Assembly (NCBI GenBank): GCA_027061725.1
Contig: JAMOVG010000382.1
Coordinates: 15,644-79,643 of the forward strand
Length of the DNA stretch: 64,000 bases
Source of the DNA: Desulfobacteraceae bacterium
GTDB taxonomy: Bacteria > Desulfobacterota > Desulfobacteria > Desulfobacterales > JALSRD01
Direction: 5' to 3'
Shown: positions 5,213 to 57,663 of the stretch, in pieces
Layout: each line of letters starts with the position of its first letter
How positions within the stretch are numbered: the stretch's first letter is position 1
Position numbers and translations under genes: made by a program
Notes under the pieces: generated by a model
What the model was told of the DNA's origin: nothing
What the model saw: only the letters and a program-made list of their open reading frames with translations
Databases searched by the model: none

Positions 5213-5519
5213 CAGAACCCCTCCTTTCCGGTTACGGGTCATCCTCCCGGTCGATCGGGCAGTGTCCGGAAGGCTTTCAAAAGCCCACAAATCTGTAAAA
5301 TGCATACACCAGGACCAGGATCGTTGGCAAGGGAAAATGCCGCACCCGGCGCCCTGCCCCGGCCCCCAGCAGGCACGGTCGTCCGGCCGCGCTGACCCCT
5401 TGGCGCACAGAAAGAAATTGCACCCTACGCGGATTTGATCTATGATGGCCGGAGCCGGTGTGAACAGGCCTAGACGACGCCGGAAACGACACCAACCCCG
5501 GATTTCGACGGCGAAGAAC

Positions 5520-6152
5520 ATGCATTCAGAACGACCCGAAAACGGCACCCCCCTGCTGGAGATTTACTCCGATTTCATCTGACCCTGGTGCTACTTCAGT
5601 GCCGTGGGCATTGAACGTCTGCAGGCCGAGCACGGCGTGGCGGTCCGCTGGCGCGGCTTTCCGCTGCACCCCGAGATCCCCGAGGAGGGTATCCCGCTCG
5701 AACGGCTCTTCGACGCCGACAGCGGCCACGTGGCCGCCATGGTCGCCCGCCTGAAGCAGGTGGCGGCCGAACTGCATCTCCCCTTCGGCGACCGCAGCAT
5801 GAGCTACAACAGCCGACTGGCCCAGGAACTGGCCAAGTGGGCCGAGTCCCAGGGGCGCGGCGAAGCCTTCCACTGGGCGGCCTTCAGGGCCTACTTCGCC
5901 GATGGCCGCAACCTGGCCGACCGGCAGGTGCTGCGCGACCTGGCCCGCGAAGCCGGGCTGGACCCCGATGAAGCCGAAGCAGTGATCCGCGAGCGCCGTT
6001 TCCGCCCCGATGTGGACCGGGACTGGACGCTGGCCGCGGAGATGGGCGTCACCGTGATTCCCACATTCATCTACGGGAAAAACCGCATCACCGGCGCCCA
6101 AACCTATGAAGCCATGGCGGAACTGGTCACGGGCGGTTCGCGCCTTCTGTAA
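5520..6152 (+). CDS. DsbA/FrnE-family thiol oxidoreductase with in-frame TGA (putative selenocysteine) in the redox motif
   Basis: The track starts at 5604, but the frame is open from ATG 5520 apart from one TGA at 5580-5582. The translation is MHSERPENGTPLLEIYSDFI-[TGA]-PWCYFSAVGIERLQ. The context DFI-x-PWCY is the DsbA-family CPWC active site, with TGA replacing the first Cys. A hairpin follows directly. Confidence 0.7.
5583..5608 (+). promoter_or_regulatory. SECIS-like stem-loop immediately 3' of the in-frame UGA
   Basis: The fold is CCC-U-GGUGC-[UACUUCA]-GUGCC-GU-GGG. That is a 5-bp stem (2 G-U pairs) plus a 3-bp lower stem and a 7-nt loop, with the loop 10-16 nt after the UGA. Folded by eye only. 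Confidence 0.4.
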
Positions 6153-10124: not shown

Positions 10125-10328
10125 ATGGAGTGTAAAAAGGAAACCAACCTGATGTCCTGCAACTGCAGCTACGACCCCTGCCCGCGCAAGGGCATCTGCT
10201 GCGAGTGCATCCGCTACCACCTGAAAATGCGCCAGCTGCCGGCCTGCTGTTTCCCCGACGACGCCGAGCGCACCTACGACCGCTCCTTCGAACACTTCGC
10301 GCGGCTGGTCACCCAGGGTAGTTTGTAA
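10125..10328 (+). CDS. Small cysteine-rich protein (DUF6485-like)
   Basis: 67 aa, [43 protein letters not shown]. It has nine Cys in the first 43 residues. RBS GGAGG lies 9 nt upstream. The pattern matches a conserved small Cys-rich family that I recognise only by recollection. Confidence 0.6.
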
Positions 10329-11283
10329 ACCGGCAGCGGCGCGCCAGCCGTCGGACGCGCTGCATGCGCTCCGGCGACAGGAAGCGGCCCAGCACCGGGT
10401 CCGCAGGGTCCGGGGCGCGCCCCAGCAGGTGGCGCTCCAGCAGCGTGATGACCTCCACGGCCTTGTCGGCCGAGGGGTAGCCGTAGTCGTCCAGCGGGAT
10501 CTCTGCCTCATCGCCTACATCGCAGATATTGTTGATGTCCACCAGTTTGAGGGACCCGTCGCGCATCAGGATGAGGTTGCCGACACCCGACAGGTCCGGC
10601 ACCATGCCCGCCTCGCGGATCAGGCGCCGGGCGCCGGCCGTCAGCCGTGCGGCCTGGACCCGCGCGCGGCTGACGGCGCGCGCCACGATCTCTTCGCCAT
10701 CTTCGCACCCGACGTTCATGGCCTGCAGCAGGCGCCGCAGCCCGGCCACCGTCATGGGCAGCCAGGGGTCGAAAATCTCGCCGGCCACGAACTCCTGCAG
10801 GCCGCAGAGCATCACCTGTTTGCGTCCGTCGAAAATGTAGGCCACGATGAACTCGTTGGAGTGGGCGATCAGTTCGCGGCCCAGGCAAGCAGCCACCAGT
10901 TTAAAACGCCGGATTTCGTCAAAAACCTCCCGCAGGGCGACAAACTGCCGCCGGAAGAGCCGCAGCATTTTGACGGGACGCGCGCGGGGAAAGACCGTGA
11001 CGCCGTCTGCCACGACGCCCCGTGTCTCACGCTGCACGTCTTCGTCCCGCAGTACTTCCATGATGTGGGAACGCAACCCCTCGCGGTAGTGCTGGCGAAA
11101 GATGTAGCCGGTGTCGGAGCGGATAAAATTGAGCCCCGCGATGTCCTCGTGGGACAGGAAGGGTTTCACGCGGATATCGCTGCTGAGAGCCATGCGTTCC
11201 TGATACCAGAAAACAGCGCCGCGGCCCAGCACAATCGTAGCGGACTGGGTATCTGCTGTATAGCTGTATAAACGGCTTGACAC
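10309..11283 (-). CDS. Hypothetical protein with protein-kinase-like catalytic-loop signature
   Basis: 324 aa with no family I can name. The C-terminal half has [25 protein letters not shown], resembling the D-x-x-x-x-N catalytic loop plus metal-binding Asp of PK-like/APH-fold kinases. The start is uncertain (M1 at 11283 or M31 at 11193). The 3' end overlaps the convergent small gene by 20 nt. Confidence 0.45.
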
Positions 11284-11522
11284 ACCCCCCGGCCTCGACT
11301 AATAATTCGCCGGTGGGGCGGGATGCCCAAAAGCCGCCCGCCCCCTTACCACCACCTGAATCCTCCGACCGCAGCATCCGTCAACGTGATGCAGGTGACC
11401 TTCTTATGACCGCCAGCAGGCATTTTCAAGGGAACCCGGCCAAAGGGAGTTTTGCTCAGGAAGGCCGGCAGGTTTCGCTACCGGTCACACCTGCCTGAAC
11501 CCGTGGTAAGCAATCCCTGAAG

Positions 11523-13097: not shown

Positions 13098-13730
13098 ATG
13101 CCGCCCACGCTTACGCTGCTGGCTGCGCTCTCGGCCGTGATTCACATCCGCGCGGAGTACCGCGGCCCGCGGTGGTGCGTCTACATCTTCAAGCCCCTGA
13201 CCATGGGGTTCATCGTGCTGATCGCCGTCACGGGCCCACCGGGTCCGGGCGCCTACCGGCACCTGGTCATCGGCGGGCTGCTCTTTTCGCTGGCGGGCGA
13301 CGTCTTTCTGATGCTGCCGTCGGACGGCTTCGTGGCCGGGCTCGTGGCCTTTCTGGTGGCGCACCTCTTCTATATTGCGGCCTTCGCCCCGGCCGCAGGC
13401 GCTCTGCAGTGGTGGCCCGTCCTGCCCCTGGCCGCCTACGGCGTGGGGATCTACCGCACATTGGCGCCCGGCCTGGGAAAACTGAAACCGCCGGTGCTGG
13501 CCTACATCGCGGTTATCATGGTGATGGCCTGGATGGGGTGGGAGCAATGGCTCCAGGCGGGCCGAACCGGGGCGCTGATGGCTTTTGCGGGGGCCCTGCT
13601 GTTCGTGGTCTCGGACACCGTGCTGGCACTCAACCGCTTCGGCCGAGGCTTCAAAGCGGCCCGCGCCCTGAACCTGTCGACCTACTTCGCTGCCCAGTGG
13701 CTGATCGCCGGGTCGGTGCGCATGGGATGA
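13098..13730 (+). CDS. YhhN-family membrane protein (lysoplasmalogenase family)
   Basis: The real start is ATG 13098 within track ORF 12651..13730. The product, MPPTLTLLAALSAVIHIRAEY...FKPLTM...GDVFLM...FLVAHLFYI, has the YhhN signature. 14 nt downstream of glpK. Confidence 0.8.
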   Translation: MPPTLTLLAALSAVIHIRAEYRGPRWCVYIFKPLTMGFIVLIAVTGPPGPGAYRHLVIGGLLFSLAGDVFLMLPSDGFVAGLVAFLVAHLFYIAAFAPAAGALQWWPVLPLAAYGVGIYRTLAPGLGKLKPPVLAYIAVIMVMAWMGWEQWLQAGRTGALMAFAGALLFVVSDTVLALNRFGRGFKAARALNLSTYFAAQWLIAGSVRMG

Positions 13731-13823: not shown

Positions 13824-14942
13824 CTAGCCGATCAGCGCATTGAAAAGATACCCCACCAGCAGGATGCCGCTGCCCACCACGGCCACAAACACGCCGATCA
13901 GGCGGGGCTTGAGCACTTTGCGCAGGATCACCATCTCGGGCAGCGACAGGGCGATCACCGACATCATGAAGGCCAGCGCCGTGCCCAGGGCGGCGCCCTT
14001 GCCGATGAGGGCCTCCAGGATGGGCACCATGCCGGCGGCGTTGGAGTACATGGGAATGCCCATCAACACGGCCGCCGGCACCGACCACCAGGCGCCCTTG
14101 CCCATGATGGCGGCCATCATGCCCTCGGGCACGTAGCCGTGAATAACAGCCCCCACGGCGATGCCGGCCACCACGAAGATCCATACCTTGCCCACAATGT
14201 CGCGCACCGCCTGCCAGCCCTGGCCGAAACGCTGGGACCAGGTGAGCCGCACCTCCGGCACCTGCGAGGCGTCGGTGCGCATCTGCAGCACCCAGCCCTC
14301 GATATGGCGCTCCATCTTCAGACGCCCGATGACCCAGCCGGCCACGATGGCCACGGCCAGGCCGGTGGCCACGTACAGCGCCGCGACCTTCCAGCCCAGA
14401 AGCCCGAAGAGCAGCACCACGGCCACCTCGTTGATCATGGGCGCGGCAATGAGAAAGGAGAAGGTCACCCCCAGGGGCACCCCGGCGGTCACAAAACCGA
14501 TGAACAGCGGCACCGCCGAACACGAGCAGAAGGGCGTGGCGATGCCCAGCAGGGCCGCCAATCCGTTGCCCAGGGACTCGCGCTTTCCGGCCAGCACGGC
14601 CCGGGAGCGCTCGGGCGTGAAAAACGTGCGCAGCACGCCCACCCCGAATACCACCAGGGTCAGCAGCAACAGCACCTTGGGCGTGTCGTAGAGGAAAAAC
14701 TGTACAGCCTCTCCCAGTCGGCTGCCTTTCGTGATGCCCAGCAGGGTGAAGGTGATCCAGTGCGACAGCGGCAGCAACTGACTGTAAACCGCGTACCAGA
14801 TCCCCAGCCCCACCAGGGCCTGCAGGATTTTTCCGGCCGTGATGCCGCCCCCGCCCTCCGGGGCGGAAAAATCGGCCGCCTTGGCAGTCTTTTCGGCCGT
14901 GCAGCCGCAACTAGCCATGGGTAGTGTTTCCATTTTTTTCAT
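13824..14942 (-). CDS. COG0701/UPF0718 (ArsP-type) permease
   Basis: The start was moved to ATG 14942 (MKKMETLPMASCGCTAEK). The conserved TPFCSCSAVPLF motif and 8 or more TM segments are typical of this permease family. Confidence 0.8.
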   Translation of the reverse strand: MKKMETLPMASCGCTAEKTAKAADFSAPEGGGGITAGKILQALVGLGIWYAVYSQLLPLSHWITFTLLGITKGSRLGEAVQFFLYDTPKVLLLLTLVVFGVGVLRTFFTPERSRAVLAGKRESLGNGLAALLGIATPFCSCSAVPLFIGFVTAGVPLGVTFSFLIAAPMINEVAVVLLFGLLGWKVAALYVATGLAVAIVAGWVIGRLKMERHIEGWVLQMRTDASQVPEVRLTWSQRFGQGWQAVRDIVGKVWIFVVAGIAVGAVIHGYVPEGMMAAIMGKGAWWSVPAAVLMGIPMYSNAAGMVPILEALIGKGAALGTALAFMMSVIALSLPEMVILRKVLKPRLIGVFVAVVGSGILLVGYLFNALIG

Positions 14943-15007
14943 CGTTCGACAAACCTTATTTCTAAAAGCCTGGGGGAAAAACCATCTTGAAGCACCACTC
15001 ATATAAC

Positions 15008-15021: not shown

Positions 15022-15220
15022 TAACACTTGTTTTTTCCTGTCAAGGAAAGAAACGGGACGGACTGCGAAACTCGTCCTTGCCGGTCTCAATGAGCGTCGA
15101 AAATAGCGGGCGTATTGAATTTTGACTCAAGGAAATCGCATGGATGTCGATACTTTCAAACATATCAGTAATATCCTGCCAAGACACTCTTGCGCAGCAA
15201 CCCGGCTCGGGGAGAAGAAA

Positions 15221-15760
15221 ATGAAGGGAATCGTATTTGTTCACTTCATGGAAATGATAGGGGAAAAGTTCGGCCTGCAGATGGAAGACCACCTTGTGAG
15301 CATTTCCGATCTTCCCAGCGACGGCATCTATACAACAGTCGGCACCTACGATCACACGGAACTGCTTGAACTGGTGGGGCGTTTGAGCAACGAGACCGGT
15401 GAGGCGGCTGGCGATATTGTAACGGATTTCGGCCGCTACCTGTTTTCAAAACTCGCGGAATCCTACGGACGGCTGCTGAACAACATTCCGGACGTCTTTT
15501 CCCTGCTCACTCAAGTTGACGATTTTATCCACGTGGAGGTGCGCAAGCTCTACCCGGAAGCGGAACTGCCGAGTTTTCAACACCAACTGCTCAATGGCGG
15601 CCGACTCGAATTGATATACCAGTCCCCAAGACCTTTCGAGAACCTCGCCCGGGGACTGATCGAAGGGGCCATCGCCTACTACAATGAACCCGTTCAACTG
15701 GAAAAAATGGAGCCGATGCCGGGCGGTCCCAATCAATATCGGTTCCTGCTGACCCGGTAA
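15221..15760 (+). CDS. hnoX: H-NOX (heme nitric oxide/oxygen-binding) sensor protein
   Basis: The start was moved to ATG 15221 (RBS GGAGA), giving MKGIVFVHFMEMIGEKFG. The proximal-His motif DDFIHVEVRKLYP and the heme-propionate Y-x-S-x-R motif (YQSPR) are both present. 179 aa, stand-alone. Confidence 0.85.
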   Translation: MKGIVFVHFMEMIGEKFGLQMEDHLVSISDLPSDGIYTTVGTYDHTELLELVGRLSNETGEAAGDIVTDFGRYLFSKLAESYGRLLNNIPDVFSLLTQVDDFIHVEVRKLYPEAELPSFQHQLLNGGRLELIYQSPRPFENLARGLIEGAIAYYNEPVQLEKMEPMPGGPNQYRFLLTR

Positions 15761-15775
15761 AAAAAGGCATTTTCC

Positions 15776-18700
15776 ATGAATGAAATAGAGCTCTTAACCC
15801 GCAAACTGGCCCGCGAGAAAAAAGCGCGCCAGCTCGCCGAAAGCCTCCTGGAGAAAAAGAGCCAGGAGCTTTATATAACGAACCGCAGACTGACCGGAAG
15901 CAACCGCAGACTGGTCGAAATCAACAGCAGTCTGAATGAGGAAATCCGCAGGCACCGCCTCACGGCGGCGGCACTTGCCGAAAAATCCGTTCTGTTGGAC
16001 AACATTCTGCGAAGCGCCACCGAATCGGCAATCACCACGGCGGACCTGGATTTCCGCATCACCTACTTCAACTCCAAGGCAGAAGAGTTTTTCGGATGTT
16101 CCGCGAACCAAGTTGTTGGAAAAACGATACAAGAATCCGGTTTAATACATAATTTCGACCCGGTCCGTTTTCAACGTACGGTAGACAAGATTAAAAGAGA
16201 GGGGGTGCACCGGTTTGAGACCAAAATTCTGGGCGAAAGCGGCGCCCAGTTCTTTGAGGTCAGGGCCTCGGGCATCTGGGATGAAGCCGGTCAACTGACG
16301 GGATACGCTCTTTTCATACGGGATACAACAGCGCAAAAGTCGGCTGAATTCGCATTGAAAGAAAGCGAAACAAAATATCGCACCCTGTTCGATGCCTCCA
16401 ACGATGCCGTCATCCTTCTCGATGAGAATGCATTCTCCTTCGAATGCAACCCGGCCACCCTATCGCTCTTTGGTTACACGCAAAAAACGGAGTTCTTTGG
16501 GCAATTCTTCCAACAGTGTTCACCGGCCTGTCAGCCGTGCGGTGAAAAATCCATGATACTGGCCGCCGAGAAGCTTGAAAAGGCCATTGATGAGGGCTTT
16601 TGCCGCTTCGATTGGACGTACAAGCGACTGGATGGCACCTGTTTCCCGGCCGAGGTGCTGTTGAGCCGGATGGACTACGGTCAACGCATGATCCTCATGA
16701 TGGTGGTTCGCGACATTACGGAGCGCAAACAGGTCGAGGATCAACTCCGCAAGGCCAAAGAACTGGCCGAGGCGGCCAACCTGGCCAAAAGCGCATTCCT
16801 GGCCAACATGAGCCATGAAATCCGGACACCGCTCAACGGGATCCTCGGAATGCTGACGCTGCTGCAGAATGCAGACTTAAATCATACGGACAGGGAATAT
16901 GTCCAGACGGCCATCACATCGGCGGAATCCCTCCTGGGAATTATCAACAAGGTTCTGGATTTTTCCAAAATCGAAGCCGGCGAACTTGTCCTGGAAAGGC
17001 ATGTTTTCGATTTGGAAAAATTGCTCCAGGAAGTTGGCGAAATACTGGCGCCCATGGCTTTTGAAAAGCAGATTGACCTTGTCCTGCGGTATGCGCCCGA
17101 AGCCCCCCGCTGGTTTATCGGCGACAGGACGCGTCTGCACCAAATCCTGAATAATCTGGGAAGCAATGCTGTAAAATTTACGAACAGCGGATATGTCAGC
17201 ATCGAAATTGACATCCGCAAAATAAATGCCAATAGCGCTGCTGCAAAGATACAGGTTAGGGATACCGGCATCGGCATAGAACCATCCAAACAGTCCATCA
17301 TTTTCAACCACTTCACTCAGGCCGACAACTCGACCACGCGGCGCTATGGGGGAACCGGGCTTGGGCTTGCGATATGCCGCCAGCTCGTAGAACTTATGGG
17401 AGGGGATCTGCGCTTGGAAAGCGAACCCGGCGTCGGAACAATTTTCTCCTTTACCATTCGTATGCCGCTGGCTTCCGAGCTACAAAATGACTCTTCCCTC
17501 TACAAACAAGGCCTTCCTCGAGTACTGGTTGTATGTCAAGAACGCAGGCAGCGGCAAATACTTGAGACTTACTTAAAGGCATGGAAAACGGATTTTGATA
17601 TCGCAGACGATGCACAGGCAGCATATAGATTGCTGCAATACACCGGCAATCAGTTTGCGATCGTTATCGCGGATGATCGCGATGTTGAGGCCGAAAGCTT
17701 CGGGAAGACGATAAGAAATGATCTTTCCTTAGATAATCTCGCCCTGGTTCTGCTTTCCACCATCGGGCACCATGGTCAAAAAGCAGCAATTGAAGCCGGC
17801 TTCACTGCTGTCATTAATCGTCCCTGCACCCCGTCATCTCTATTCGACCGCTTAACATCGATTGTCAATGGAGAGCAATCCGTCGGAAACAATCGCCGGC
17901 GGAAAAACGAGGCGGATATGCAAAAGCCCGACAGGGCATCCGCACTGCAGTCTGTTCGAATACTGCTTGTCGAAGACAATAAAGTTAACCGGATGGGCAC
18001 TCTGGGGATCCTCAAACTGTTGGGATACACGCAGGTGGACGTTGCTGAGAACGGACAAATCGCCGTCGACAAGGCCCGCGAACAGTCTTTCGATCTTATC
18101 CTGATGGATATTCAGATGCCTGTGATGGACGGTTACGAAGCCACACGCCTTATCCGTCTTCTCGAAATGCGCCGCATGCAAAACGAAAAATCGCCGAACA
18201 TACGACACCATGTCCCCATCGTTGCTATGACCGCCAGCGCATTCGAGGAAGAGCGTCAGCGGTGCCTTCGAGCGGGGATGGACGACTTCGTGAGCAAACC
18301 TGTTCGAAAGGAGACTCTCAGGAATGTCGTCGTCCGCCTGACCAATCAATCATCCGGGAGTAAAGATGAGTCCACGTCTAGAGGCGAAAATAACGGGTCG
18401 GACAATCGGGATGAACTGCCGGTTTTCAACTTCGAGGAGGCCATGGAGCGATATGAAGGAGACCGGGACATTCTAAAAGCGATCATCGATGAATTCCTGT
18501 CCCAGACGCAGGTAGCGATAGAGGAAATAGAGAAGGGCATTTTGTCCGGGGATCTTCAGATGGTGAGAAAAAAGGCTCATGCACTAAAAGGCGGCGCCGC
18601 CTATATTGCGGCCGAGCGTTTCCGCCATGCGGCCTATGAATTGGAAACCCTCGGAACCAACCGGAAGGCAACCCTTTCCCTGCTCCCGAAACTGCGTGAG

Positions 18701-18781
18701 GAGTTCCACCGTTTCAAGAATCAGTTGTCCGATTTCGACTGGTCCGAAGGCTCGTCACTGGCATCCGTGGCAAATGGGTAA
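15776..18781 (+). CDS. Hybrid sensor histidine kinase (coiled coil, 2 PAS, HisKA-HATPase, pseudo-REC, REC, Hpt)
   Basis: 1001 aa. H-box [11 protein letters not shown]; N/G boxes [21 protein letters not shown]; receiver [13 protein letters not shown]...MTA; C-terminal Hpt [11 protein letters not shown]. It starts 15 nt after the H-NOX gene. Confidence 0.9.
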
Positions 18782-18860
18782 GTGCATCGGATGCAAGTAG
18801 ATCCATTGCCAACGAAACAGTCGCCTACCGACCCATCCCCAAAAGAGGCAGGGAACCGAT

Positions 18861-19865
18861 ATGAAAGTCCTGGTGGCTGACGACGAAATTGTCAGTTTGA
18901 AGACGCTTGAAATCTTTGTTAGCAAGTTGGGATACGAGGTTCTCACAGCCAAAAATGGGCAGGAAGCCTACGACATCTGGCAGCGGGAGCGGCCTCAACT
19001 GGTGATTACCGACTGGGAGATGCCTTACATCAACGGTCGCGATTTGTGCACACGCATCAGGCAGTGGCCACAGGACAACTACACCTACATCATTCTGGTA
19101 ACCAGCAGGGACAAAGTACAGGATATTGTCGAGGGCATGCATGCCGGGGCCGATGACTATATCACCAAACCCTTCAATAAAGATGAACTCAACGCACGCA
19201 TCAGGGCGGGCAAACGTATCATCGACTTCCAGAGCAAAGACATACTGATCTTTGCTCTGGCCAAATTGGCCGAATCCAGAGACGAAGATACCGGCGATCA
19301 TCTCGAGCGCGTCCGGCACTATTCAAAGACTTTGGCGGAGACACTGTACAACAGCGGTGACGGTTCTGGCGAACTGGACAGTCAACTGATCGACAATATT
19401 TTCCTGACCAGTCCCCTGCACGATATCGGCAAAGTGGGAATCCCCGATTACGTACTTTTAAAACCCGGCAGGCTTGACGACAACGAATTTGAGGTCATGA
19501 AAAGCCATACCATCATCGGCTATAAGACGCTGACGGAAGCCATGGAAAAAGCCCCCAGCGCCGGATACCTGCGGGTTGCAGCAGAGATTGCACGCCACCA
19601 CCACGAAAAATGGGATGGGAGCGGGTATCCCGACAGGCTCAAGGGGGACCAGATCCATATCGCCAGCCGCATCTTTGCGATAGCAGACGTCTACGACGCC
19701 CTGGTTTCGAAAAGGCCCTACAAATCGCCCATGAGCCACGAACGGGCCAAGGCCATCATTACCGACGCCAATGGCACTCATTTCGACCCCGTGGTCGTAA
19801 AAGCCTTTTTACGTTGTGAACAGCGATTTCTAGAAATATTCAGGTCCATCGGCGACATTAAATAA
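18861..19865 (+). CDS. Response regulator with HD-GYP c-di-GMP phosphodiesterase domain
   Basis: 334 aa. REC domain (MKVLVADDE...VITDWEMPYINGRDL...VTS). HD-GYP domain (HLERV, PLHDIGKVGIP, HHEKWDGSGYP). Confidence 0.9.
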   Translation: MKVLVADDEIVSLKTLEIFVSKLGYEVLTAKNGQEAYDIWQRERPQLVITDWEMPYINGRDLCTRIRQWPQDNYTYIILVTSRDKVQDIVEGMHAGADDYITKPFNKDELNARIRAGKRIIDFQSKDILIFALAKLAESRDEDTGDHLERVRHYSKTLAETLYNSGDGSGELDSQLIDNIFLTSPLHDIGKVGIPDYVLLKPGRLDDNEFEVMKSHTIIGYKTLTEAMEKAPSAGYLRVAAEIARHHHEKWDGSGYPDRLKGDQIHIASRIFAIADVYDALVSKRPYKSPMSHERAKAIITDANGTHFDPVVVKAFLRCEQRFLEIFRSIGDIK

Positions 19866-29873: not shown

Positions 29874-32204
29874 TTACACCAAAGGATCGTTTTCCACAAG
29901 GTTCCATATGCCGCAGGGGCAGGCCCCGGCGCAGAATCCGCAGGCGATGCACTTGTCCGCGTCCACCACGTACTCAAATTCGCCGTCGTCTGGCTCGATG
30001 CGCTCGATGGCGGCCTGGGGGCAGATGGTGGCGCACACGCCGCAGTCGCGGCAGCTGCCGCACGACGAGCACTGCGACCCGCAGTGGTCCAGGTCCTCGA
30101 AGTCCGTCAGCCGCGGGTCGAAGTATTCCAGCTTGACCCGGCGGGTGTCGATGACCTGCTGCAGGTTGGCGCTGGGCCGTTTTCCGTCGAGCATATCGGC
30201 GATGGCCTCGGCCGCGCGGCGGCCGGCGCCGATGGCGTCGGTCAGCAGCCCGGGCCGCACGATGTCGCCGATGGCGAAGATTTTGGGATCCGAGGTCTGG
30301 CCGAATTCGTTGACCGTCACGAAGCCGCGCTCGGCGGCGACGGTCTCGGGCAGGAAGTCCAGGTCCGGCACGTCGCCGATGGAAATCACCACCGTATCGG
30401 CCGGGATCCGCTCGCCGTCGGCCAGCACGACCCCCTCTTCCGTTATCTCACGGGTGAAGCACGGCCAGCGGAAACGGGCGCCGGCGGCCTCGGCCGCCCG
30501 GCGCTCGGCGCCGAAGGAGGCCGGCTCCTGCACGTCGATAAGCAGCAGCGAACGCGCCCCCAGCCGGGCGGCCTCGGTGGCCACATCGCAGCCCACGTTG
30601 CCGGCGCCGATGATCACCACGCGCTCGCCCACGCGGGCGCGGCCGGCCTTGGCGTCGGCCAGGAAATCGCTGGCCGTGATCAGGCGCTCCCTGCCGGGTA
30701 CGTCCAGCATGCGGGGTTTGGACGCGCCGGTGGCGATGACCACGAAATCGTAGTCCTCGCGCAGCTGGGCCAGGTCCGCGCGGCGCAGCTTCTGCTGCAG
30801 GTGAATATGGGGGATCACCTCGCGCACGCGCTGCAGTTCGGCCGAGACCACTTCTTCCGGGATGCGCGAGGAAGGGATGACCGAGGCGATTTTGCCGCCC
30901 AGGGTCCCGGAGAGGTCGTAGACCGTGGCCTCGTGGCCGCGCATGCGCAGCTGCCAGGCCACGGAGAGGCCCGCCGGCCCGCCGCCGATGACGGCCACCT
31001 TGCGGCCGCTGGGTTCGGGCAGGTCGGGCAGCCCGGCCGCCAGGCTGGCCCGGCCCAGCTGGCGCACGTCCACCGGCGCCATGATGGACTGCTGGCGCGT
31101 GCAGGCCTGCATGCAGGGACCGGGGCACAGGTAGCCGCACACCGTGGCCGGAAAAGGCGTGTAGGCCAGCGCCAGGTCCACGGCCTCGTCCACGCGGCCG
31201 TCGCGCACCAGCTGCCAGCGCTGCTGCACCGGTATGCCCGTGGGGCAGGTGGCCTCGCAGGGCGCCAGGTATTTGCGGTTTTCCCAGACGGGCACGTAGC
31301 GCCGCAGATCGCCGCTGACAATCAGGCCGATGGGGCTGCGGTCCAGGTTCGTCAGGTCCCCGATGAGCCCGCCGCGGCCCAGTTCGGCCTCCCAGCTGCG
31401 CACCTTGAAGTCGGCCATGGACATCAGCTGCCGGCCGCGCTTTTCCTGGGCCGTGCGCGCCCGCAGCAGCTGCCACTGATCGCGCCGGCTGAGGTCCTGC
31501 AGCAGGTCCGGGCGGTTGATGGCGGTCAGAAACGCCTCCAGGTTCTCCACCAGCCACGCGAAATCAGCGTCCTCGATGGGAACCAGCCGGGCATCGGCCT
31601 GGCTGAAGCCCTTGATGGGGCCGCGGAAAAACACGCGGCCGCCCACCATGCCCACCAGGGGCCGGTAGCCCAGCACGTTTTCCGGGTCCTGGGCCTCGAC
31701 CCCGCAGACCACGGCCACACCGCCGGCCATAAACTCGCCGAAGTAGTCGCCCACCGAGCCCAGCACCCACAGTTCGGGCGGTGCAAAGCGCGGGTTCTGC
31801 TTGGTCATGGTCATGCCGCGGGCGCCGATGTTGCCGGCCACGTAAATCTTGCCCTGGGCCATGGCGTTTCCCACGCCGTTGGAGGCGTTGCCGTGCACGA
31901 CGATCCTGGCGCCGGCGTTTAGCCAGCCGACGTCGTCCGAAGAGGGGCCCAGCACCTCGATGGTGGTGTTGGCATACCCCATGGCCCCCACACGCTGGCC
32001 GGCGTGGCCGGTGATGCGCACGTGCACGGGGTCGTCGCCGGCGCGCCACAGGCGGCCGCCGATGCCGTGCTGGCCGAAAGCCTCCACTTCCAGCCGCCGA
32101 CAGCCGTCGGCCACGGCACGCTGGATACGCTCCTCCAGCACCCGCGATTCGATGCGCGTGCCGTTTTCCCTTCCCGATATGGTCCGATGCAGGTTATCGC
32201 TCAT
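29874..32204 (-). CDS. Glutamate synthase fusion: GXGXG (GltB C-terminal) domain + GltD-like NAD(P)H oxidoreductase + 2x[4Fe-4S] ferredoxin tail
   Basis: 776 aa. N-terminal GXGXG repeats (GHAGQRVGAMG, VHGNASNGVGNAM, VAGNIGARG). Two Rossmann motifs (VAVIGGGPAGLS, VVIIGAGNVGCD). C-terminal CxxCxxCxxxCP motifs. Confidence 0.85.
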   Translation of the reverse strand: MSDNLHRTISGRENGTRIESRVLEERIQRAVADGCRRLEVEAFGQHGIGGRLWRAGDDPVHVRITGHAGQRVGAMGYANTTIEVLGPSSDDVGWLNAGARIVVHGNASNGVGNAMAQGKIYVAGNIGARGMTMTKQNPRFAPPELWVLGSVGDYFGEFMAGGVAVVCGVEAQDPENVLGYRPLVGMVGGRVFFRGPIKGFSQADARLVPIEDADFAWLVENLEAFLTAINRPDLLQDLSRRDQWQLLRARTAQEKRGRQLMSMADFKVRSWEAELGRGGLIGDLTNLDRSPIGLIVSGDLRRYVPVWENRKYLAPCEATCPTGIPVQQRWQLVRDGRVDEAVDLALAYTPFPATVCGYLCPGPCMQACTRQQSIMAPVDVRQLGRASLAAGLPDLPEPSGRKVAVIGGGPAGLSVAWQLRMRGHEATVYDLSGTLGGKIASVIPSSRIPEEVVSAELQRVREVIPHIHLQQKLRRADLAQLREDYDFVVIATGASKPRMLDVPGRERLITASDFLADAKAGRARVGERVVIIGAGNVGCDVATEAARLGARSLLLIDVQEPASFGAERRAAEAAGARFRWPCFTREITEEGVVLADGERIPADTVVISIGDVPDLDFLPETVAAERGFVTVNEFGQTSDPKIFAIGDIVRPGLLTDAIGAGRRAAEAIADMLDGKRPSANLQQVIDTRRVKLEYFDPRLTDFEDLDHCGSQCSSCGSCRDCGVCATICPQAAIERIEPDDGEFEYVVDADKCIACGFCAGACPCGIWNLVENDPLV

Positions 32205-32207
32205 GTT

Positions 32208-33842
32208 CTACACCACATATTTGATCTTCAGCCGCCGGGCGGCGTTGGAATCGTCGATGCCCAGGGCGTCGGCCATGCCGATGGGCAGCGAAGTCGAACG
32301 GCCCAGGGGCGCAATGATCTTTTTCAGCTCGGTGTCGAAGGTCAGGAATACATCCACCACCCGCTGGGCCACGTCCTCGACATCCAGGCGCCGGTAGAGG
32401 CGCGGGTCCTGGGAGGTGATGCCCTTGGGGCACTGCCCGATGTTGCAGATATTGCAGCGGTCCGACTCGGAGCCCAGGCACCCGGCGGCGGCCTGCATGA
32501 TGTACTTGCCGGTCTGCACGGCGCTGGCGCCCAGCATGATGAGCGCCGCGGCGTTGGCCGCCAGGTTGCCGCTCTTGCCTACACCGCCGCCGGCAATGAG
32601 CGGAATTTCGTTCTGCCTGCCCACCGTCACCAGGTTGAGGTAGGCGTCGCGCAGACTGCTGGCGATGGGGTGGCCCATGTGGTCCATGGATACGTTGTAG
32701 GCCGCGCCGGTACCGCCGTCCTCACCGTCGATGGCCAACCCGGCGGCGTAAGGGTTGCGCACCAAATTGTTCAGCACCGCCAGGGTAGTGGAAGTGGCCG
32801 ATATCTTGGGAAATACCGGCACCCGGAAATCCCAGGCCATGTACATGGACTGGATCATCTTGGCCACCGACTCCTCGATGGAGTATTTGGTCTGGTGGGT
32901 CGGCGGGCTGGGCAGGCTGACCCCCGGCGGCACACCGCGGATGGCGGCGATCAGCTCGTTGACCTTGTACCACATGAGCAGGCCGCCGTCGCCGGGCTTG
33001 GCGCCCTGGCCGTACTTGATCTCGATGGCGCAGGGGTCCTCCTTCATCTCGGGGATGGCGTGGATGATCTCGTCCCAGCCGAAGTAGCCGCTGGCGATCT
33101 GCAGGATGACGTTTTTCAAAAAACGCGAGCGCAGCAGCCGCGGCGGGCAGCCGCCCTCGCCCGTGCAGATGCGCACCGGCATGCCCAGCTCGTCGTTGAG
33201 GTAGGCCACCCCCATCTGCAGCCCCTCCCACATGTTGGGCGACAGGGCGCCGAAGGACATGCCGCCGATGACCAGCGGGTAGATCTCGCGCACCGGCGGG
33301 ATCCAGCCGTTGCTGCTCAGAAAGGCCAGGTTGTCCTCGGGCGGCAGCACGCGGCCCAGCAACGTGCGCAGCTCGAACTCGTGGCGCCCGGCGTCCAGGG
33401 CCGGGTCGGTGAGCATGGAGATGCGGATGAACTTGATGCGGTCCAGGATGGTGCCGCCCACGTTGCGCCGTCCGCCCCGGCGGCGGGGCTGTCCGCCGCG
33501 GTCCATGTGGAAGACCAGCTTGTTGGCCTCGTCGCTGCGCTGCGGCATGATGGCATCATTGGGACACACCATGGTGCACATGGCGCACCCCACGCAGCGG
33601 TAGGCGGGGTCGGTGCGCTGGCGGATGCCGTAGTAAATGCGGTAGTCATGCCGCGGTTTCTCGGCGATGCCCAGCGCGGGCTCCACGATGCGCTTTCGAA
33701 AAACCCCCAGCTCGATGGCGCTGACCGGACAGACCGCCGTGCACTTGCCGCACAAGGTGCACTTGTCCTTGTCCCAGAAAATCTGCCAGGGCAGGTCCTT
33801 GACGCTCAGTGTGGAAGGGGTAATTTTTCCGTCTGCCGGCAT
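32208..33842 (-). CDS. Glutamate synthase FMN-binding (GltB domain 2-like) subunit with N-terminal 2x[4Fe-4S] ferredoxin
   Basis: Track ORF 32208..34610 is over-extended. The real start is ATG 33842, with GGAGG 8 nt upstream. The product begins MPADGKITP...CTLCGKCTAVCP...CVGCAMCTMVCP. It continues with GGMSFGALS, KYGQGAKPGDGG and IAGGGVGKSGN (FMN/substrate site). Confidence 0.85.
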   Translation of the reverse strand: MPADGKITPSTLSVKDLPWQIFWDKDKCTLCGKCTAVCPVSAIELGVFRKRIVEPALGIAEKPRHDYRIYYGIRQRTDPAYRCVGCAMCTMVCPNDAIMPQRSDEANKLVFHMDRGGQPRRRGGRRNVGGTILDRIKFIRISMLTDPALDAGRHEFELRTLLGRVLPPEDNLAFLSSNGWIPPVREIYPLVIGGMSFGALSPNMWEGLQMGVAYLNDELGMPVRICTGEGGCPPRLLRSRFLKNVILQIASGYFGWDEIIHAIPEMKEDPCAIEIKYGQGAKPGDGGLLMWYKVNELIAAIRGVPPGVSLPSPPTHQTKYSIEESVAKMIQSMYMAWDFRVPVFPKISATSTTLAVLNNLVRNPYAAGLAIDGEDGGTGAAYNVSMDHMGHPIASSLRDAYLNLVTVGRQNEIPLIAGGGVGKSGNLAANAAALIMLGASAVQTGKYIMQAAAGCLGSESDRCNICNIGQCPKGITSQDPRLYRRLDVEDVAQRVVDVFLTFDTELKKIIAPLGRSTSLPIGMADALGIDDSNAARRLKIKYVV

Positions 33843-34936
33843 ATGCTGACCTCCTTGCGGTCCGGACCGACGATGGCCGTGTCCAGATACATGGGCTGAA
33901 AATCGCTGCTCTTGTCGCGGTCGGGAATGGCGGCGTCCAGACCGCAGATCTCCGAGGAGAAGGCGTACATGCCCGGGCGGCCGCCCACCACCCCGGGCCG
34001 CAGCTTCTTGCGGTCCTGAACCATGAAAAGCGTGTGGTCCGAGAGGCACCCGATGACGCAGTTGGGGCCGTCGATGATCATGCGGCGGCAGCTGTGCTTG
34101 AGGTGCTTGAGAAACGCGGCGTCGGGGTGCCGCGCGATGTCCTCGTCCTTGAGCGGTGTGATGACGTGCTTGTAGGCCTCCAAGCCCAGCCCCAGCTTGG
34201 CCATGGTGTAGTGCAGGATGTGGGTGAACACCTCGGAGTCGGACTGGTAGCCCGAGTAGCCGGGAAAATTGCGCGAGGCCAGGAACTCGCGGATGGGGAT
34301 GAAGGCCGTGTTTTCGCCGTTGGTCATGGTGGAAAAGCCCTGGATGAAAAAGGGGTGACAGGCGTAGAGGTTGATCTCGTAGTTGGTGTTCTGGCGGCCC
34401 TGGGCCATGAGCACGCGGGCCTTGAGTTCCTTGCGGCCCAGGTCCAGGTATTCGGCCACCTTCATGGGGTCGCCGATCTCCTTGATCATGATGACATCCG
34501 GCCAGAAGGAGAACACGATCATGTCCCCCTGCTCCTCTCCCATGCGACGCAGCTGCAGCCGGGTCTCCAGCAGGCGGTCGTAGAGCTCCTCCTGGCTGCA
34601 GCCCTCCCATTCCTCGGGATACTCGTAGGCGCGGATGAGATAGCTGTCGCGCCGCGGCGTACCCGGCGGCGGGGTCTTGGGCACCTTGATGGTCAGCTTG
34701 TACTGGGTCATGAAGCCGATGTCCATCATGAAGCGGTCCAGGCGCTTGATCCCCTCGCGGGTAAAGATGCCCGACAGGATAGGGGCGGTCTTGAGGTCCT
34801 CGAAGGGCCCCGAGAGGTCGCGCATGAACAGCCCTACCCCGGACCCGTCGTGCCCCTCGCGCATGACGTCCAGGGCCTCGATGGCCACCATGGGCGACAG
34901 GGGCTCTTCACTGGTTATGGCAAACAGTCGACACAT
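33806..34936 (-). CDS. Glutamate synthase class II glutamine amidotransferase subunit (GltB domain 1-like)
   Basis: The real start is ATG 34936, giving MCRLFAITS (Ntn-type Cys2), with RBS AGGAGA. 376 aa. The 3' end overlaps the next gene by 37 nt. Confidence 0.85.
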   Translation of the reverse strand: MCRLFAITSEEPLSPMVAIEALDVMREGHDGSGVGLFMRDLSGPFEDLKTAPILSGIFTREGIKRLDRFMMDIGFMTQYKLTIKVPKTPPPGTPRRDSYLIRAYEYPEEWEGCSQEELYDRLLETRLQLRRMGEEQGDMIVFSFWPDVIMIKEIGDPMKVAEYLDLGRKELKARVLMAQGRQNTNYEINLYACHPFFIQGFSTMTNGENTAFIPIREFLASRNFPGYSGYQSDSEVFTHILHYTMAKLGLGLEAYKHVITPLKDEDIARHPDAAFLKHLKHSCRRMIIDGPNCVIGCLSDHTLFMVQDRKKLRPGVVGGRPGMYAFSSEICGLDAAIPDRDKSSDFQPMYLDTAIVGPDRKEVSICRQTEKLPLPH

Positions 34937-35055
34937 ATGGCATTTCTCCTTTGCTGCCGCACGCTGCAAAAGAAACAGCTTCACGGAAAAGATGAGACAC
35001 CGCAAAACCCCGACGGACGTCGGAGCCTTGAGAGGGAGGGGAAATAGAAATAGAG

Positions 35056-35070
35056 GCAAACCCCGTGCCA
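35056..35070 (-). promoter_or_regulatory. Sigma-54 (-24/-12) promoter for the glutamate synthase operon
   Basis: The minus strand reads TGGCACGGGGTTTGC. This matches TGGCAC-N5-TTGC with correct spacing. It lies about 120 nt upstream of ATG 34936, and an AT-rich tract sits further upstream (35130-35170). Confidence 0.65.
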
Positions 35071-43656: not shown

Positions 43657-44712
43657 ATGCTGTTTGCCAAGAAAAACCACTTAGTCGGACTCGACATCGG
43701 TTCCCGCACCATCAAAGTCGCAGAAATCACCGGGCTCAGCAAGGGCGGTGCCTTTAAGGCCTTCGGCCTCATCGACATCCCGCCCGGTCTCATCGAGGAC
43801 GGCACCATCAAGGAGCCGGAAAAGGTGGCCGAGTTCATCCGCGAACTGTTTTCCACCCACAAAATCAAGGAGCAGAACGTCGCCACCTCCATCGGCGGAT
43901 ACTCGGTGATCGTCAAGAAAATCGACGTACAGACCATCAGCGAAGAGCAGCTGCAGGAAAACATCCATCTCGAGGCCGAGCAGTACATCCCTTACGACAT
44001 TAACGATGTGTACTTGGATTTTCACATCATCGGGGAAAACGAGAACAACGCCAACCTGACCAGCGTGCTGCTCACGGCGGCCAAAAAGGAGATGGTGGAC
44101 GACTACGCAGGCGTCATTGACATGGCGGGGCTGAACCCCTGCGTGGTGGACGTGGACGCCTTCGCCCTGCAGAATATTTTCGAGTTCACTCAGGGCGGGG
44201 GTGATGAAAACATCGCCCTTATCGACATCGGCGCCTCCAAGACCTCGCTGAACATCCTCAAGAACAATCAGTCCCTCTTCATGCGGGATGTCTCGCTGGG
44301 ATGCGCCCAGATCAACCACAAGATCGCCTCCATGGCCGACTGCTCCGCTGAAGAGGCTGAAGAGATCAAACTGACCGGCAAATCCGACACCCTGTCCTCC
44401 GAACAGATCAAGGAAATCATCTCGACCATCGTGGCCGACTGGTGCCAGGAGATCCGGCGGGCGCTGGATTTCTTCTACTCCACCTACCCGGACGACCAGA
44501 TCAAGCGCATCGTGCTGAGCGGCGGCGGGGCCAACATCAAGGAGTTCAGGGAATTACTGGGCGTCGAAACCTCCGCCGAAGTGGAAGTGATCAACCCCTT
44601 CGCGCCTTTCAGGGCCGACAGCGGACGGCTCGACCCCGCCTATCTGTCACAGGTGGCTCCCCAGGCGGCCATTTGCATGGGGCTGGCTACACGAAGAATC
44701 GACGACAAATGA
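43657..44712 (+). CDS. pilM: Type IV pilus assembly protein PilM (actin-like ATPase fold)
   Basis: 351 aa. LVGLDIGSRTIKVAE, EAEQYIPYDINDVYLDF, ALIDIGASKTSLNI and VLSGGGANIKEF are typical PilM motifs. Confidence 0.9.
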   Translation: MLFAKKNHLVGLDIGSRTIKVAEITGLSKGGAFKAFGLIDIPPGLIEDGTIKEPEKVAEFIRELFSTHKIKEQNVATSIGGYSVIVKKIDVQTISEEQLQENIHLEAEQYIPYDINDVYLDFHIIGENENNANLTSVLLTAAKKEMVDDYAGVIDMAGLNPCVVDVDAFALQNIFEFTQGGGDENIALIDIGASKTSLNILKNNQSLFMRDVSLGCAQINHKIASMADCSAEEAEEIKLTGKSDTLSSEQIKEIISTIVADWCQEIRRALDFFYSTYPDDQIKRIVLSGGGANIKEFRELLGVETSAEVEVINPFAPFRADSGRLDPAYLSQVAPQAAICMGLATRRIDDK

Positions 44713-45317
44713 TACGAATCAACCTGTTACCATTCCGAGATGCTCGCAGAAAAGAGACCGCCCGCAAACAGGTGGGTATTTTCCTGTTGACCATGGCCGT
44801 GGTGCTGGGCCTTCTGCTGGTTGTCCACTTCTACCTGAAAAATCAGGAGAAAAGCCTGCAGACCCGGGTCAAATCCACCAAGGCCCAACTGGCCAAGTAC
44901 GAAAAGATCAACAAGGAAATCACCGCAATCAAAAAGAAGCTGGAGATTCTCAAGAAAAAGACCGACGTCATCAAGAGTTTGGAGGCCAACCGCCGCCAGG
45001 CGGTGGAACTGCTGGATGCCTTCACAAGGTTGGTGATCAAGAAGCGCATGTGGTTCACGCGACTGGAAAGCCACGGCTCACTGTCGGGTACCGTGCGAAT
45101 CCTCGGCATCGCTATGGACAACAAGACCGTGGCCGATTTCATGACACGGCTGGAAAAATCGGGTCTCTTCGCCAGTGTGCAGCTCAAGAACCTGCAAAAG
45201 CACACCATCAAGGAAAACCAGAGCATCGATCTGAAGAAATTTGAGATTGACTGTCAACGGATAGCCAAGAACCCGGTTCAGACGGACAAGAAGAAGAAGA
45301 AGGCCAAAAAGAAATGA
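44709..45317 (+). CDS. pilN: Type IV pilus assembly protein PilN, with Lys-rich C-terminal tail
   Basis: ATG 44709 overlaps the pilM stop. The product has MIRINLLPFRDARRKE, one TM, a coiled coil and a ferredoxin-like domain. It ends QTDKKKKKAKKK. Confidence 0.8.
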   Translation: MIRINLLPFRDARRKETARKQVGIFLLTMAVVLGLLLVVHFYLKNQEKSLQTRVKSTKAQLAKYEKINKEITAIKKKLEILKKKTDVIKSLEANRRQAVELLDAFTRLVIKKRMWFTRLESHGSLSGTVRILGIAMDNKTVADFMTRLEKSGLFASVQLKNLQKHTIKENQSIDLKKFEIDCQRIAKNPVQTDKKKKKAKKK

Positions 45318-45979
45318 AATCAGGCGCATCCGCAGATAAAACCGCACTGTTCGAAAGGATAGAGCAGCTTTCCAAAACCCAGAAGGTCCTGATTTACGTG
45401 GTCTGTATCCTGCTGGTGACAGCCGCGTTCGGATACTTCTCCTTCTACCGCTCGTGGCAGGCCGTCAACAGGCTGTCCAAGGAAGAGAAGCAGCTGCAGG
45501 AAAAACTGACCATCGCAAAGCGCAACGCGCGCCAGATCAAAGCCTATCGCGAGCGCATCGAACAGGCCAAGGCCCGCCTCAAGATGGCCATGCGGGCACT
45601 TCCCGAAAAGCAGGAGATCCCCTCGCTGCTGGCCGGCATCTCCCGGGCCGGGCAACGGGCCGGGCTGGAGTTCACGCTCTTTCAGCCCAAGGCGGAAATC
45701 CCCAAGGACTTCTACGCCGAACTCCCCCTGGCCATCAAGGTCACCGGCACCTATCACCAGGTAGCCACCTTCTTTGACAAGGTTTCCCGGCTGGACCGGA
45801 TCGTCAACATTCAGGACATCACCATGACACCGCTGCCGGATAAAGAACAGTCCGGACCTGACATTAAACTGATGACGGCCTGCACGGCGGTGACCTACAA
45901 GTTCATTGAGCAGTCCCAGCAGAAAAAATCCGGCAAGGACAAGAAGAGAAAGAAGAAGAAAAAGAACAAGAAAAAATAA
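45314..45979 (+). CDS. pilO: Type IV pilus assembly protein PilO, with Lys-rich C-terminal tail
   Basis: 221 aa. ATGA overlap with pilN. One TM, a coiled coil, and the PilO core (IPSLLAGISRAGQRAGLEFTLFQP...VTGTYHQVATFFDKVSRLDRIVNI). It ends KKSGKDKKRKKKKKNKKK. Confidence 0.8.
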   Translation: MKSGASADKTALFERIEQLSKTQKVLIYVVCILLVTAAFGYFSFYRSWQAVNRLSKEEKQLQEKLTIAKRNARQIKAYRERIEQAKARLKMAMRALPEKQEIPSLLAGISRAGQRAGLEFTLFQPKAEIPKDFYAELPLAIKVTGTYHQVATFFDKVSRLDRIVNIQDITMTPLPDKEQSGPDIKLMTACTAVTYKFIEQSQQKKSGKDKKRKKKKKNKKK

Positions 45980-45999
45980 CAGCAGAAACGGCACTGATT

Positions 46000-46611
46000 A
46001 TGTTCAAAGCGAACGCCACCCTGACCCGACTGGCCTGTGTTTTCTGTTTTGCGGCCTTTCTGACAGCCGGCTGCGACAGCGGCACCGAAAAACCCGTCCA
46101 GAAAACCGTCGTAGGACAGAAAATCATGACTTCCTCCAAGAAAAGTGCACCGGCAGCTAAGAAAGAGGCCGCTGCTCATGCGCAGCAGAAAACGACGGCG
46201 CCTGCCTCAGACACCCGTGTGGCCAGCATAAAGCCATACAGCCCTGCAGGCAAAACCGACCCGTTTGTCCCCCTGTTCCGCAAGTCGGAAACCGAAGACA
46301 CCCAGCCCACAGCTTCTCCCAAGAAGAAGCGCAGGAAGCACATCCCCCGCACGCCGCTGGAACGGGTCGACCTCAGCCAGCTGAAACTCACCGCCATCAT
46401 CCGTTCGCCCCAGGGCAACAAGGCATTGGTGGAAGAAGCCACCGGCAAGGGATACGTCGTCACGGTGGGCACCTACTTGGGCAACCAGGGCGGGAAAATC
46501 ACGAAAATACTTGACGATCGCATCATCGTCGAAGAAGAGATAGAACAGCCATTAGGGGGAATCAAAAAAGTACCACGCCAACTGAAACTTCAGAAATCTT
46601 CAGGGGAATGA
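46000..46611 (+). CDS. pilP: Type IV pilus assembly lipoprotein PilP
   Basis: 203 aa. Lipobox LTAGC. DPFVPLF motif. C-terminal beta-domain (LKLTAIIRSPQGNKALVEEATGKGYVVTVGTYLG). Confidence 0.75.
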   Translation: MFKANATLTRLACVFCFAAFLTAGCDSGTEKPVQKTVVGQKIMTSSKKSAPAAKKEAAAHAQQKTTAPASDTRVASIKPYSPAGKTDPFVPLFRKSETEDTQPTASPKKKRRKHIPRTPLERVDLSQLKLTAIIRSPQGNKALVEEATGKGYVVTVGTYLGNQGGKITKILDDRIIVEEEIEQPLGGIKKVPRQLKLQKSSGE

Positions 46612-46615
46612 CACC

Positions 46616-50808: not shown

Positions 50809-50900
50809 CCGAGCATGCAGGCGAAATGCTCTTGCGGTTCCCTTTTCGGCGCGGCCGGGACGTGCCGCCGGTCTCCGGGAAACCGCCACGGATAACCGCC

Positions 50901-52127: not shown

Positions 52128-52255
52128 GCAAGGGTTTCAGCGATCAGCTGTCGGGGACCGGGTACTATCGTGAAGCGAACCGTCATTAATTCATTGCTGG
52201 ACTGATTGGCGTCCGGGTCGCCTTGGAAGCGGCGACGGGTGCCAAGGGAGGAAAT

Positions 52256-52711: not shown

Positions 52712-52715
52712 GGCC

Positions 52716-55408: not shown

Positions 55409-55434
55409 CGGGGCGCAACCCCCGCCCGTAACAG

Positions 55435-55453
55435 CTGCCGCAGCGTGCGGCAG
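55435..55453 (+). other. 8-bp perfect hairpin in the gspK-gspL spacer
   Basis: CTGCCGCA-[GCG]-TGCGGCAG, read directly. No U-tract. It may be an RNA stability or processing element, or may have no function. Confidence 0.25.
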
Positions 55454-55488
55454 TCGTAACAGGCTGCAAAACAATCAGAATCCACGCA

Positions 55489-56946: not shown

Positions 56947-57013
56947 TGAATTCTATGGACGGGCGGGAGATGGACAAGATGCACAAATCCGAAAGGCGAG
57001 GCCGGCGCCGGCC

Positions 57014-57544: not shown

Positions 57545-57663
57545 GCTTCCGGCAGGGAGGCGCTGACGGGGGAGGAACCGTTGGGCGCGGTTTGCGAAAA
57601 GCGCCGTAATATCATGAGCCTGCGTATTTTTTGGCTATCAGGAGAACAGCGTTGGCATCGAAG

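Follow-up and report, generated by a model that had tools for sequence, protein, structure and literature searches.

A gene whose reading frame is broken by a single in-frame TGA may be a damaged gene, or it may be a complete one in which UGA is read as selenocysteine (Sec), and in the latter case the question follows of where the signal for this reading lies. The locus studied here raises both questions for a DsbA-like gene at 5520-6152 (+) of the window, by which we mean the whole 64-kb stretch of DNA that was analysed. Our reading, in which we place high confidence on comparative grounds, is that the gene encodes a 210-residue cytoplasmic thiol-disulfide oxidoreductase of the DsbA fold (FrnE/COG2761-type), that its UGA is decoded as Sec, and that U21-P-W-C24 is its redox centre.

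An oxidoreductase gene with UGA at the active site

The frame opens at ATG 5520 and runs to the TAA at 6150-6152, and the TGA at 5580-5582 is its sole interruption; these coordinates, which an earlier note on this DNA had given, were confirmed. Read through the TGA, the complete CDS of the DsbA-like (FrnE-type) selenoprotein (5520-6152, +) comprises 210 residues with Sec as residue 21, its N-terminus is MHSERPENGTPLLEIYSDFI-U-PWCYFSAVG, and the residues flanking Sec are IYSDFI-U-PWCYFSAVGIER. The redox motif U-P-W-C is encoded by TGA CCC TGG TGC (5580-5591, +), and the protein has a single cysteine, C24, besides U21. In the mechanical ORF list the gene begins at GTG 5604, where the ORF track quoted by the same note also began it, and so comprises 182 aa (5604-6152), with a separate 46-aa ORF ending at 5582; this 182-aa call is without strand 1 and the redox motif. 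The most likely start codon is the ATG at 5520-5522 (+), 20 codons in frame before the UGA, as indicated by the spacing of start codons in relatives and by L001, a syntenic relative with a stop codon just upstream of the equivalent ATG. The frame is also open further upstream to ATG 5442 (5442-5519, +), which would add an Arg-rich extension of 26 residues, MMAGAGVNRPRRRRKRHQPRISTAKN. Because the stop codon of L001 interrupts the equivalent stretch, this extension is probably untranslated, and ATG 5442 finds no support from relatives.

The family assignment is clear when U is written as C: Pfam DSBA (PF01323) matches residues 13-202 with an E-value of 8.9e-36 and over positions 2-189 of the 191 in the profile. 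The match starts at residue 13, and therefore the fold begins upstream of the TGA. Among solved structures the best match is Deinococcus radiodurans FrnE (PDB 5cnw; E 5.5e-21, residues 12-199), whose strand-1/CPWC segment DIWSDIACPWCY aligns on EIYSDFI-U-PWCY. Further downstream, the V-I-P-T-F segment (6054-6068, +) carries the conserved Pro-Thr of the thioredoxin fold; both residues are invariant in the alignment of Cys-form homologs, and the proline would, from the fold, be the cis-proline. Over its first 20 residues the protein is polar (mean Kyte-Doolittle -0.56), and no segment of the first 55 is hydrophobic. Since there is no hydrophobic N-terminus, only one Cys besides U21 and no C-terminal extension of the FrnE kind, the protein appears to be a cytoplasmic thiol-disulfide oxidoreductase of the FrnE-core type and not a periplasmic DsbA. 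Two other identities were considered and rejected, that of classical periplasmic DsbA, as the N-terminus is not hydrophobic and the motif is U-P-W-C instead of CPHC, and that of the Rcas_1661 family of thioredoxin-like (seleno)lipoproteins (NF041057), whose model matched only the C-terminal part with 46 bits, below the NCBIfam cutoff of 190.

The distribution of the UGA among relatives was followed at the protein and DNA levels. In a search of a 5.8-billion-protein collection, the closest homologs were 165-190 aa long and covered 78-87% of the query, and more distant ones were 197-210 aa long and covered 91-96%; the long homologs carry C-P-W-C-Y, and the short ones begin downstream of that motif. 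It had been expected that Cys-containing homologs would align across the UGA, and they do, C-P-W-C standing opposite U-P-W-C in P0009-P0013, P0016, P0018, P0020, P0021, P0063 and FrnE. At the DNA level, 160 related loci were collected, of which 80 are GTDB species-representative loci and the rest metagenome loci, and 159 of them show the motif. The codon at the Sec site (5580-5582 in the window), which aligns with the first Cys of CPWC, is TGA in 141 of the 159 motif-bearing loci and TGC or TGT in 18. TGA occupies the first position of xPWC in 79 of the 80 GTDB loci, where a Planctomycetaceae MAG (L042) is the sole one with TGC, and in 62 of the 79 metagenome loci with the motif, the remaining 17 having TGC or TGT. 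The metagenome scan was aimed at Cys-form controls and mostly returned Sec forms; the control set consists of these 17 Cys loci and L042. Across 129 distinct Sec sequences, the P, W and C of the motif are invariant or nearly invariant. Judged by its codons, the locus thus bears out the proposal of a DsbA/FrnE-type protein with UGA at the first Cys of its CxxC motif, and such alternation of Sec and Cys at the nucleophilic position is a classic selenoprotein signature.

The sequence on the 5' side of the TGA is also conserved. In the GTDB loci, whose hosts belong to Desulfobacterota, Syntrophales, Syntrophorhabdales, Planctomycetota, Acidobacteriota, Candidatus Abyssobacteria and others, the peptide preceding the TGA is L-E-[IV]-F-S-D-Y-[IV], with a Met about 8-20 codons further upstream. 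A start codon stands in frame 8-20 codons before the UGA in 135/138 Sec loci (130 ATG, 8 GTG). Mean entropy over the nine codons upstream of the UGA is 0.65, 0.38 and 1.28 bits at codon positions 1, 2 and 3, respectively (129 distinct Sec-form sequences), and this periodicity indicates that these codons are translated. The earlier note had named, as an observation that would speak against its proposal, homologs that start at the equivalent of 5604 with nothing conserved upstream; this is not what was found, since the upstream peptide is conserved and the codon equivalent to GTG 5604 is GGG or GGT in many relatives, so that there is no conserved start at this position. The truncated gene calls of the relatives range from 165 to 190 aa.

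Two overlapping hairpins downstream of the UGA

A SECIS element had been proposed for the stem-loop at 5583-5608 (+), here called hairpin A. This stem-loop, with the loop ACUUC, does exist, with an energy of -12.8 kcal/mol (5580-5613), and it pairs the U and the G of the UGA itself. It overlaps with hairpin B at 5595-5615 (+), and the two are mutually exclusive; in naked RNA the pair probability is about 0.9 for hairpin A and about 0.05 for hairpin B. Since the 64-nt region folds no better than shuffled sequence (z = -0.34) and its sequence is 62.5% G+C, hairpin A alone is not beyond chance. It is the comparative pattern, with TGA at the same codon in locus after locus, that lies far beyond chance.

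Hairpin B consists of the arms 5595-5603 and 5607-5615 and an apical GUG loop at 5604-5606, and the core that is conserved in the family pairs 5596-5602 with 5608-5614. The GUG of the loop is the same GTG that the ORF lister chose as a start codon, an overlap which is a coincidence. With -10.3 kcal/mol, a 9-bp stem, a distance of 21 nt from the UGA and G as the first loop base, hairpin B falls within all four bSECIS constraints quoted in PMC13188914 (a loop of 3-9 nt and a stem of 4-16 bp, G among the first two bases of the loop, a distance of 16-37 nt to the UGA, and an energy of -7.5 kcal/mol or lower), whereas hairpin A fails two of them, as its loop contains no G and its spacing from the UGA is 10 nt. 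In a gapless alignment of 80 Sec-form sequences, 95.2% of the cells of hairpin B are paired, and compensatory changes are found in four of its seven pairs. The number of cells changed on both sides is 29, against at most 9 in slid registers, and this was reached by none of 500 shuffles. Only one pair (G-U) is often broken, being unpaired in 21 of 75 sequences, and the others are broken in 0-1. The corresponding figures for hairpin A are 87.3% of cells paired, a compensatory change in one of eight pairs, 11 cells changed on both sides, and three pairs broken in 19-25 of 75 sequences. RNAalifold predicted hairpin B without any hint. In L001, a single difference (CCC to CCG) breaks one pair of hairpin A and leaves hairpin B intact. 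Thus, the expectation that the hairpin would be conserved in orthologous loci holds for hairpin B, which covaries, and does not extend to hairpin A.

The stem of hairpin B is also specific to the Sec forms. Of its seven pairs, Sec forms keep 6.77 on average (n = 112 distinct sequences) and Cys forms 3.71, and the energies are -5.96 and -1.17 kcal/mol, respectively. In the Cys-form locus L107, almost the same peptide (L-S-T-P-R-I-E) is encoded by other synonymous codons, and the stem is lost. Third-position entropy at codons +5 to +10 is 0.07-0.77 bits, compared with 1.25-1.87 bits further downstream, while the third positions of codons +1 to +4, the 5' arm of hairpin A, vary as freely as codon degeneracy permits. 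The covariation of the stem can be seen at the protein level, where the partner codons are AGU (Ser) and AUU (Ile), GGU (Gly) and ACC (Thr), UGU (Cys) and either AUA (Ile) or ACA (Thr), and UGC (Cys) and GUG (Val). In the window and L001, a change of Thr to Ala (GCC) is matched by one of Arg to Gly (GGC), which turns an A-U pair into a G-C pair and is compensatory. In alignment A1 (columns 20-38), the covarying residue pairs, S/I, G/T, C/I and C/V, with A/G in the window, stand six to seven codons apart. We conclude from these comparisons that the SECIS-like element is most plausibly 5595-5615 and not 5583-5608, and that hairpin A is probably not the SECIS. The earlier note was accordingly right that a hairpin follows the UGA, and the part of its claim that did not stand is the assignment of the SECIS to 5583-5608.

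The near-invariant core of the element is AGUACCGUGCGUAUUGA, 13 nt after the UGA (hairpin +13 to +33; this anatomy comes from the present analysis alone). A lower-stem extension of hairpin B is possible in the window only, pairing 5589-5591 with 5621-5623 and 5593-5594 with 5617-5618 (5589-5623, +) in the MFE fold of 5583-5640; its partner columns are not conserved in the family, and the extension is a prediction only. A search of the whole 64-kb window with Rfam at gathering thresholds gave no match, so no curated SECIS family applies. A separate observation concerns a soil/sediment clade, in which Cys and Sec forms (L081-L091, L096, L101, L104, L107, L118 and L122 versus L092-L160) resemble the same Cys-form query to about the same degree (69-84% identity). 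The Cys forms of this clade have lost the SECIS stem, and their codons have drifted to be G+C-rich, which is consistent with a recent Sec/Cys interconversion after which the RNA constraint relaxed.

Rival readings, decoding and genomic context

Hairpin A, and not B, could be the functional SECIS, or both could be required, an alternative that we regard as improbable. In the naked RNA of the window hairpin A is more stable than hairpin B, and it is largely paired across the family, but this pairing is mostly due to the invariant P-W-C-Y codons, with a single compensatory pair, three frequently broken pairs and a 5' arm whose third positions are unconstrained. With the UGA in the A site, that arm would, by the known footprint, be inside the ribosome. 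Some bacterial SECIS elements do depart from the consensus model (PMC13188914), as hairpin A would have to, with no G in its loop and a spacing of 10 nt that lies outside the 16-37 nt range. A different idea would give both structures a role: the two hairpins might form a conformational switch in which hairpin A, as long as it is not unwound, hides the SECIS or stalls the ribosome, and thereby sets the moment at which SelB is recruited or adjusts how often Sec is inserted relative to termination. We consider this a long shot; if it were true, a bacterial SECIS regulated through two states would be a novel form of the recoding signal.

The two remaining rivals deny Sec insertion altogether. If the TGA were a true stop, created by a nonsense mutation or a sequencing error, the gene would be truncated or a pseudogene that makes nothing functional, or else a 182-aa protein without CxxC from GTG 5604. 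The mechanical ORF call (5604-6152), the likewise shortened public gene calls of relatives and the failure to see Sec machinery in the 64-kb window agree with this, but the same TGA recurs in 141 loci from several phyla, the upstream peptide is conserved in frame with codon periodicity, the Pfam domain starts before the TGA, and many relatives have GGG or GGT in place of GTG 5604, with no conserved start. Moreover, a DsbA fold without strand 1 and CxxC would have no redox function. Conservation thus appears to refute truncation effectively, and we give it next to no chance of being correct. Alternatively, the UGA might be read through without Sec, either under a reassigned code (Trp or Gly) or by a near-cognate or suppressor tRNA that inserts Trp, Cys or Arg. 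Database entries P0015, P0028 and P0030 do show W at this codon, and no Sec machinery was seen in the 64-kb window. However, TGA is the most used stop in the window and ends 14 of its 27 family-assigned genes, which indicates the standard genetic code without reassignment; the position is that of the catalytic Cys of CxxC, and in relatives the TGA alternates with no codons other than those for Cys; the bSECIS-fitting hairpin is conserved only where the codon is TGA; and a Trp in place of the nucleophile would leave no redox chemistry. Read-through without Sec is therefore very improbable, and decoding of the UGA as Sec is the reading that we carry forward.

The first 10-12 nt after a UGA in the A site lie inside the mRNA channel of the ribosome. 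Hairpin A could thus not persist at the moment of decoding, if this footprint applies, whereas hairpin B would stand at the channel entrance and there bind SelB.GTP.Sec-tRNA(Sec), so that Sec is delivered to the A site. In the folded protein, Sec21 would be placed at the N-terminus of the first thioredoxin-fold helix and would be the attacking nucleophile; in the course of thiol-disulfide exchange, it and Cys24 would join in a selenenylsulfide. As for the machinery, ARAGORN found no tRNA of any kind, and thus no selC, in the 64-kb window, and no selA, selB or selD was found among the approximately 57 window ORFs that were scanned against NCBIfam or Pfam. Judged by its nearest relative, L001, the window organism falls in a lineage known to be rich in selenoproteins (PMC1794560), which is no more than circumstantial evidence. 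A crude scan of the window for further selenoprotein genes, in which the DsbA-like gene itself also went undetected, yielded none; the only candidate passing its crude filter, an ORF that continues across an in-frame TGA upstream of glpK (11452-11518), was unconvincing and was rejected.

Next to the gene, the opposite strand encodes an amino-acid ABC transporter; downstream of the gene follow an O-methyltransferase-like gene, a hotdog thioesterase and a glycosyltransferase-like membrane protein. Only the close relative L001 has these neighbours as well. L001 is an uncultured Desulfobacteraceae MAG, and the substrate-binding protein of its neighbouring ABC transporter is 99.7% identical to that of the window. 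When the flanking ORFs of all 160 loci were clustered, no partner gene recurred, and no neighbour conserved across these loci suggests a substrate or partner; the second-largest cluster of flanking ORFs looks like a spurious antisense ORF.

Several other features of the window were observed in passing. At 13824-15002 (-) lies a permease with weak similarity to SaoE, a selenoprotein-associated efflux component, and to SO_0444 Cu/Zn efflux proteins (134 bits, where the cutoff is 325). A small selenoprotein gene beside this permease was considered and rejected, since the adjacent stretch that had looked free of genes, 13100-13730 (+), is an ordinary membrane-protein ORF. The signalling cluster at 15122-19865 (+) consists of three genes, one for a haem-NO-binding (H-NOX) protein, one for a PAS hybrid histidine kinase of 1001 aa that has receiver and Hpt domains, and one for a protein with receiver and HD domains. 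Because its third-position G+C (about 0.60-0.65) is below that of the flanking genes (about 0.85), this cluster may be a horizontally acquired island. A split glutamate-synthase-like set at 29874-35059 (-) comprises a 776-aa NAD(P)-binding GltD-like protein, a 530-aa protein with Fer4 and Glu_synthase domains, and a 417-aa ORF (33806-35059, -) that matches no family; the 776-aa protein has a far sub-threshold match to the 'diclust_near_Sec' model. A type IV pilus cluster (pilM-pilN-pilO...pilQ; 43657-49786, +) and a full type II secretion cluster (gspF, G, pseudopilins, K, L, M, C, D, E; 50826-63339, +) place two secretins less than 15 kb apart. The regions 10309-11283 (-) and 63138-63629 (-) have coding-like composition and no NCBIfam or Pfam match.

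Annotation and comparison with known systems

NCBIfam contains no model for the DsbA-like selenoprotein family, and the public entries of the nearest homologs are either N-terminally truncated without the active site or have Trp at the Sec position. That such genes would be mis-annotated as truncated proteins had been predicted, and the NCBI entries P0001 and P0092, both 182 aa without CxxC, are examples. P0015, P0028 and P0030 read FSDYI-W-PWCY, so that UGA is rendered as Trp, which is a second type of mis-annotation beside truncation and presumably came from a gene caller with an alternative genetic code. The same annotation problem affects at least 141 loci from two public collections, and a rule built on the near-invariant SECIS core 13 nt after the UGA would be simple as well as specific for annotation. 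The family also illustrates cleanly how an in-frame RNA structure constrains a protein through codon-level covariation (S/I, G/T, C/V), a constraint on the protein sequence that relaxes after Sec is replaced by Cys.

The biology itself is not new, as Sec/Cys pairs in thioredoxin-fold oxidoreductases, including the DsbA-like family, have been catalogued since 2005, and in this respect too the earlier note was correct. Zhang, Fomenko and Gladyshev described the DsbA-like protein (COG2761, UxxC) in 2005 as a new selenoprotein family with nine sequences from the Sargasso Sea metagenome (PMC1088965), and in 2006 the DsbA-like selenoprotein was reported in Anaeromyxobacter dehalogenans, Desulfovibrio desulfuricans and Desulfotomaculum reducens (PMC1794560). 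In a 2026 review it appears as "DsbA-like protein form 1, PF01323, UxxC"; the review states that nearly all such families come from computational identification and that their functions are largely uncharacterized (PMC13188914). The window protein has the same PF01323 domain and the same UxxC motif with Sec first, COG2761 is the JGI name of its homologs, and the occurrence of the family in deltaproteobacterial anaerobes matches. Compared by domain, motif, COG name and occurrence, the two showed no essential difference. Thus, by its sequence features, all of which agree with those that define the family, the window gene is a member of this already catalogued selenoprotein family.

Among proteins of solved structure, D. 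radiodurans FrnE (PDB 5cnw, 5cp1 and others) is a cytoplasmic DsbA-like thiol-disulfide oxidoreductase with CPWC after strand 1, as in the window protein. The window protein has no signal peptide, and FrnE is not known to have one. FrnE has Cys where the window protein has Sec, and identity over the aligned stretch is modest. The FrnE chain has 260 aa and a C-terminal extension that carries a second CxxxxC motif, whereas the window protein ends at residue 210 and has no second cysteine pair. Since it ends there with C24 as its single Cys, it is FrnE-like in the core only. Classical periplasmic DsbA of E. coli shares the thioredoxin fold with the inserted helical domain (Pfam DSBA) and a motif of the CxxC type, but its motif is CPHC and it is exported by a Sec signal, whereas the window protein has U-P-W-C and no signal peptide. 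At the RNA level, the comparison is with the fdhF SECIS of E. coli, the paradigm for bacteria, which stands at the mRNA channel entrance when the UGA is in the A site. The upper stem of hairpin B begins 12-13 nt after the UGA. Both elements are hairpins within the CDS just 3' of the UGA, with G and then U in a small apical loop, although they have no resemblance in sequence.
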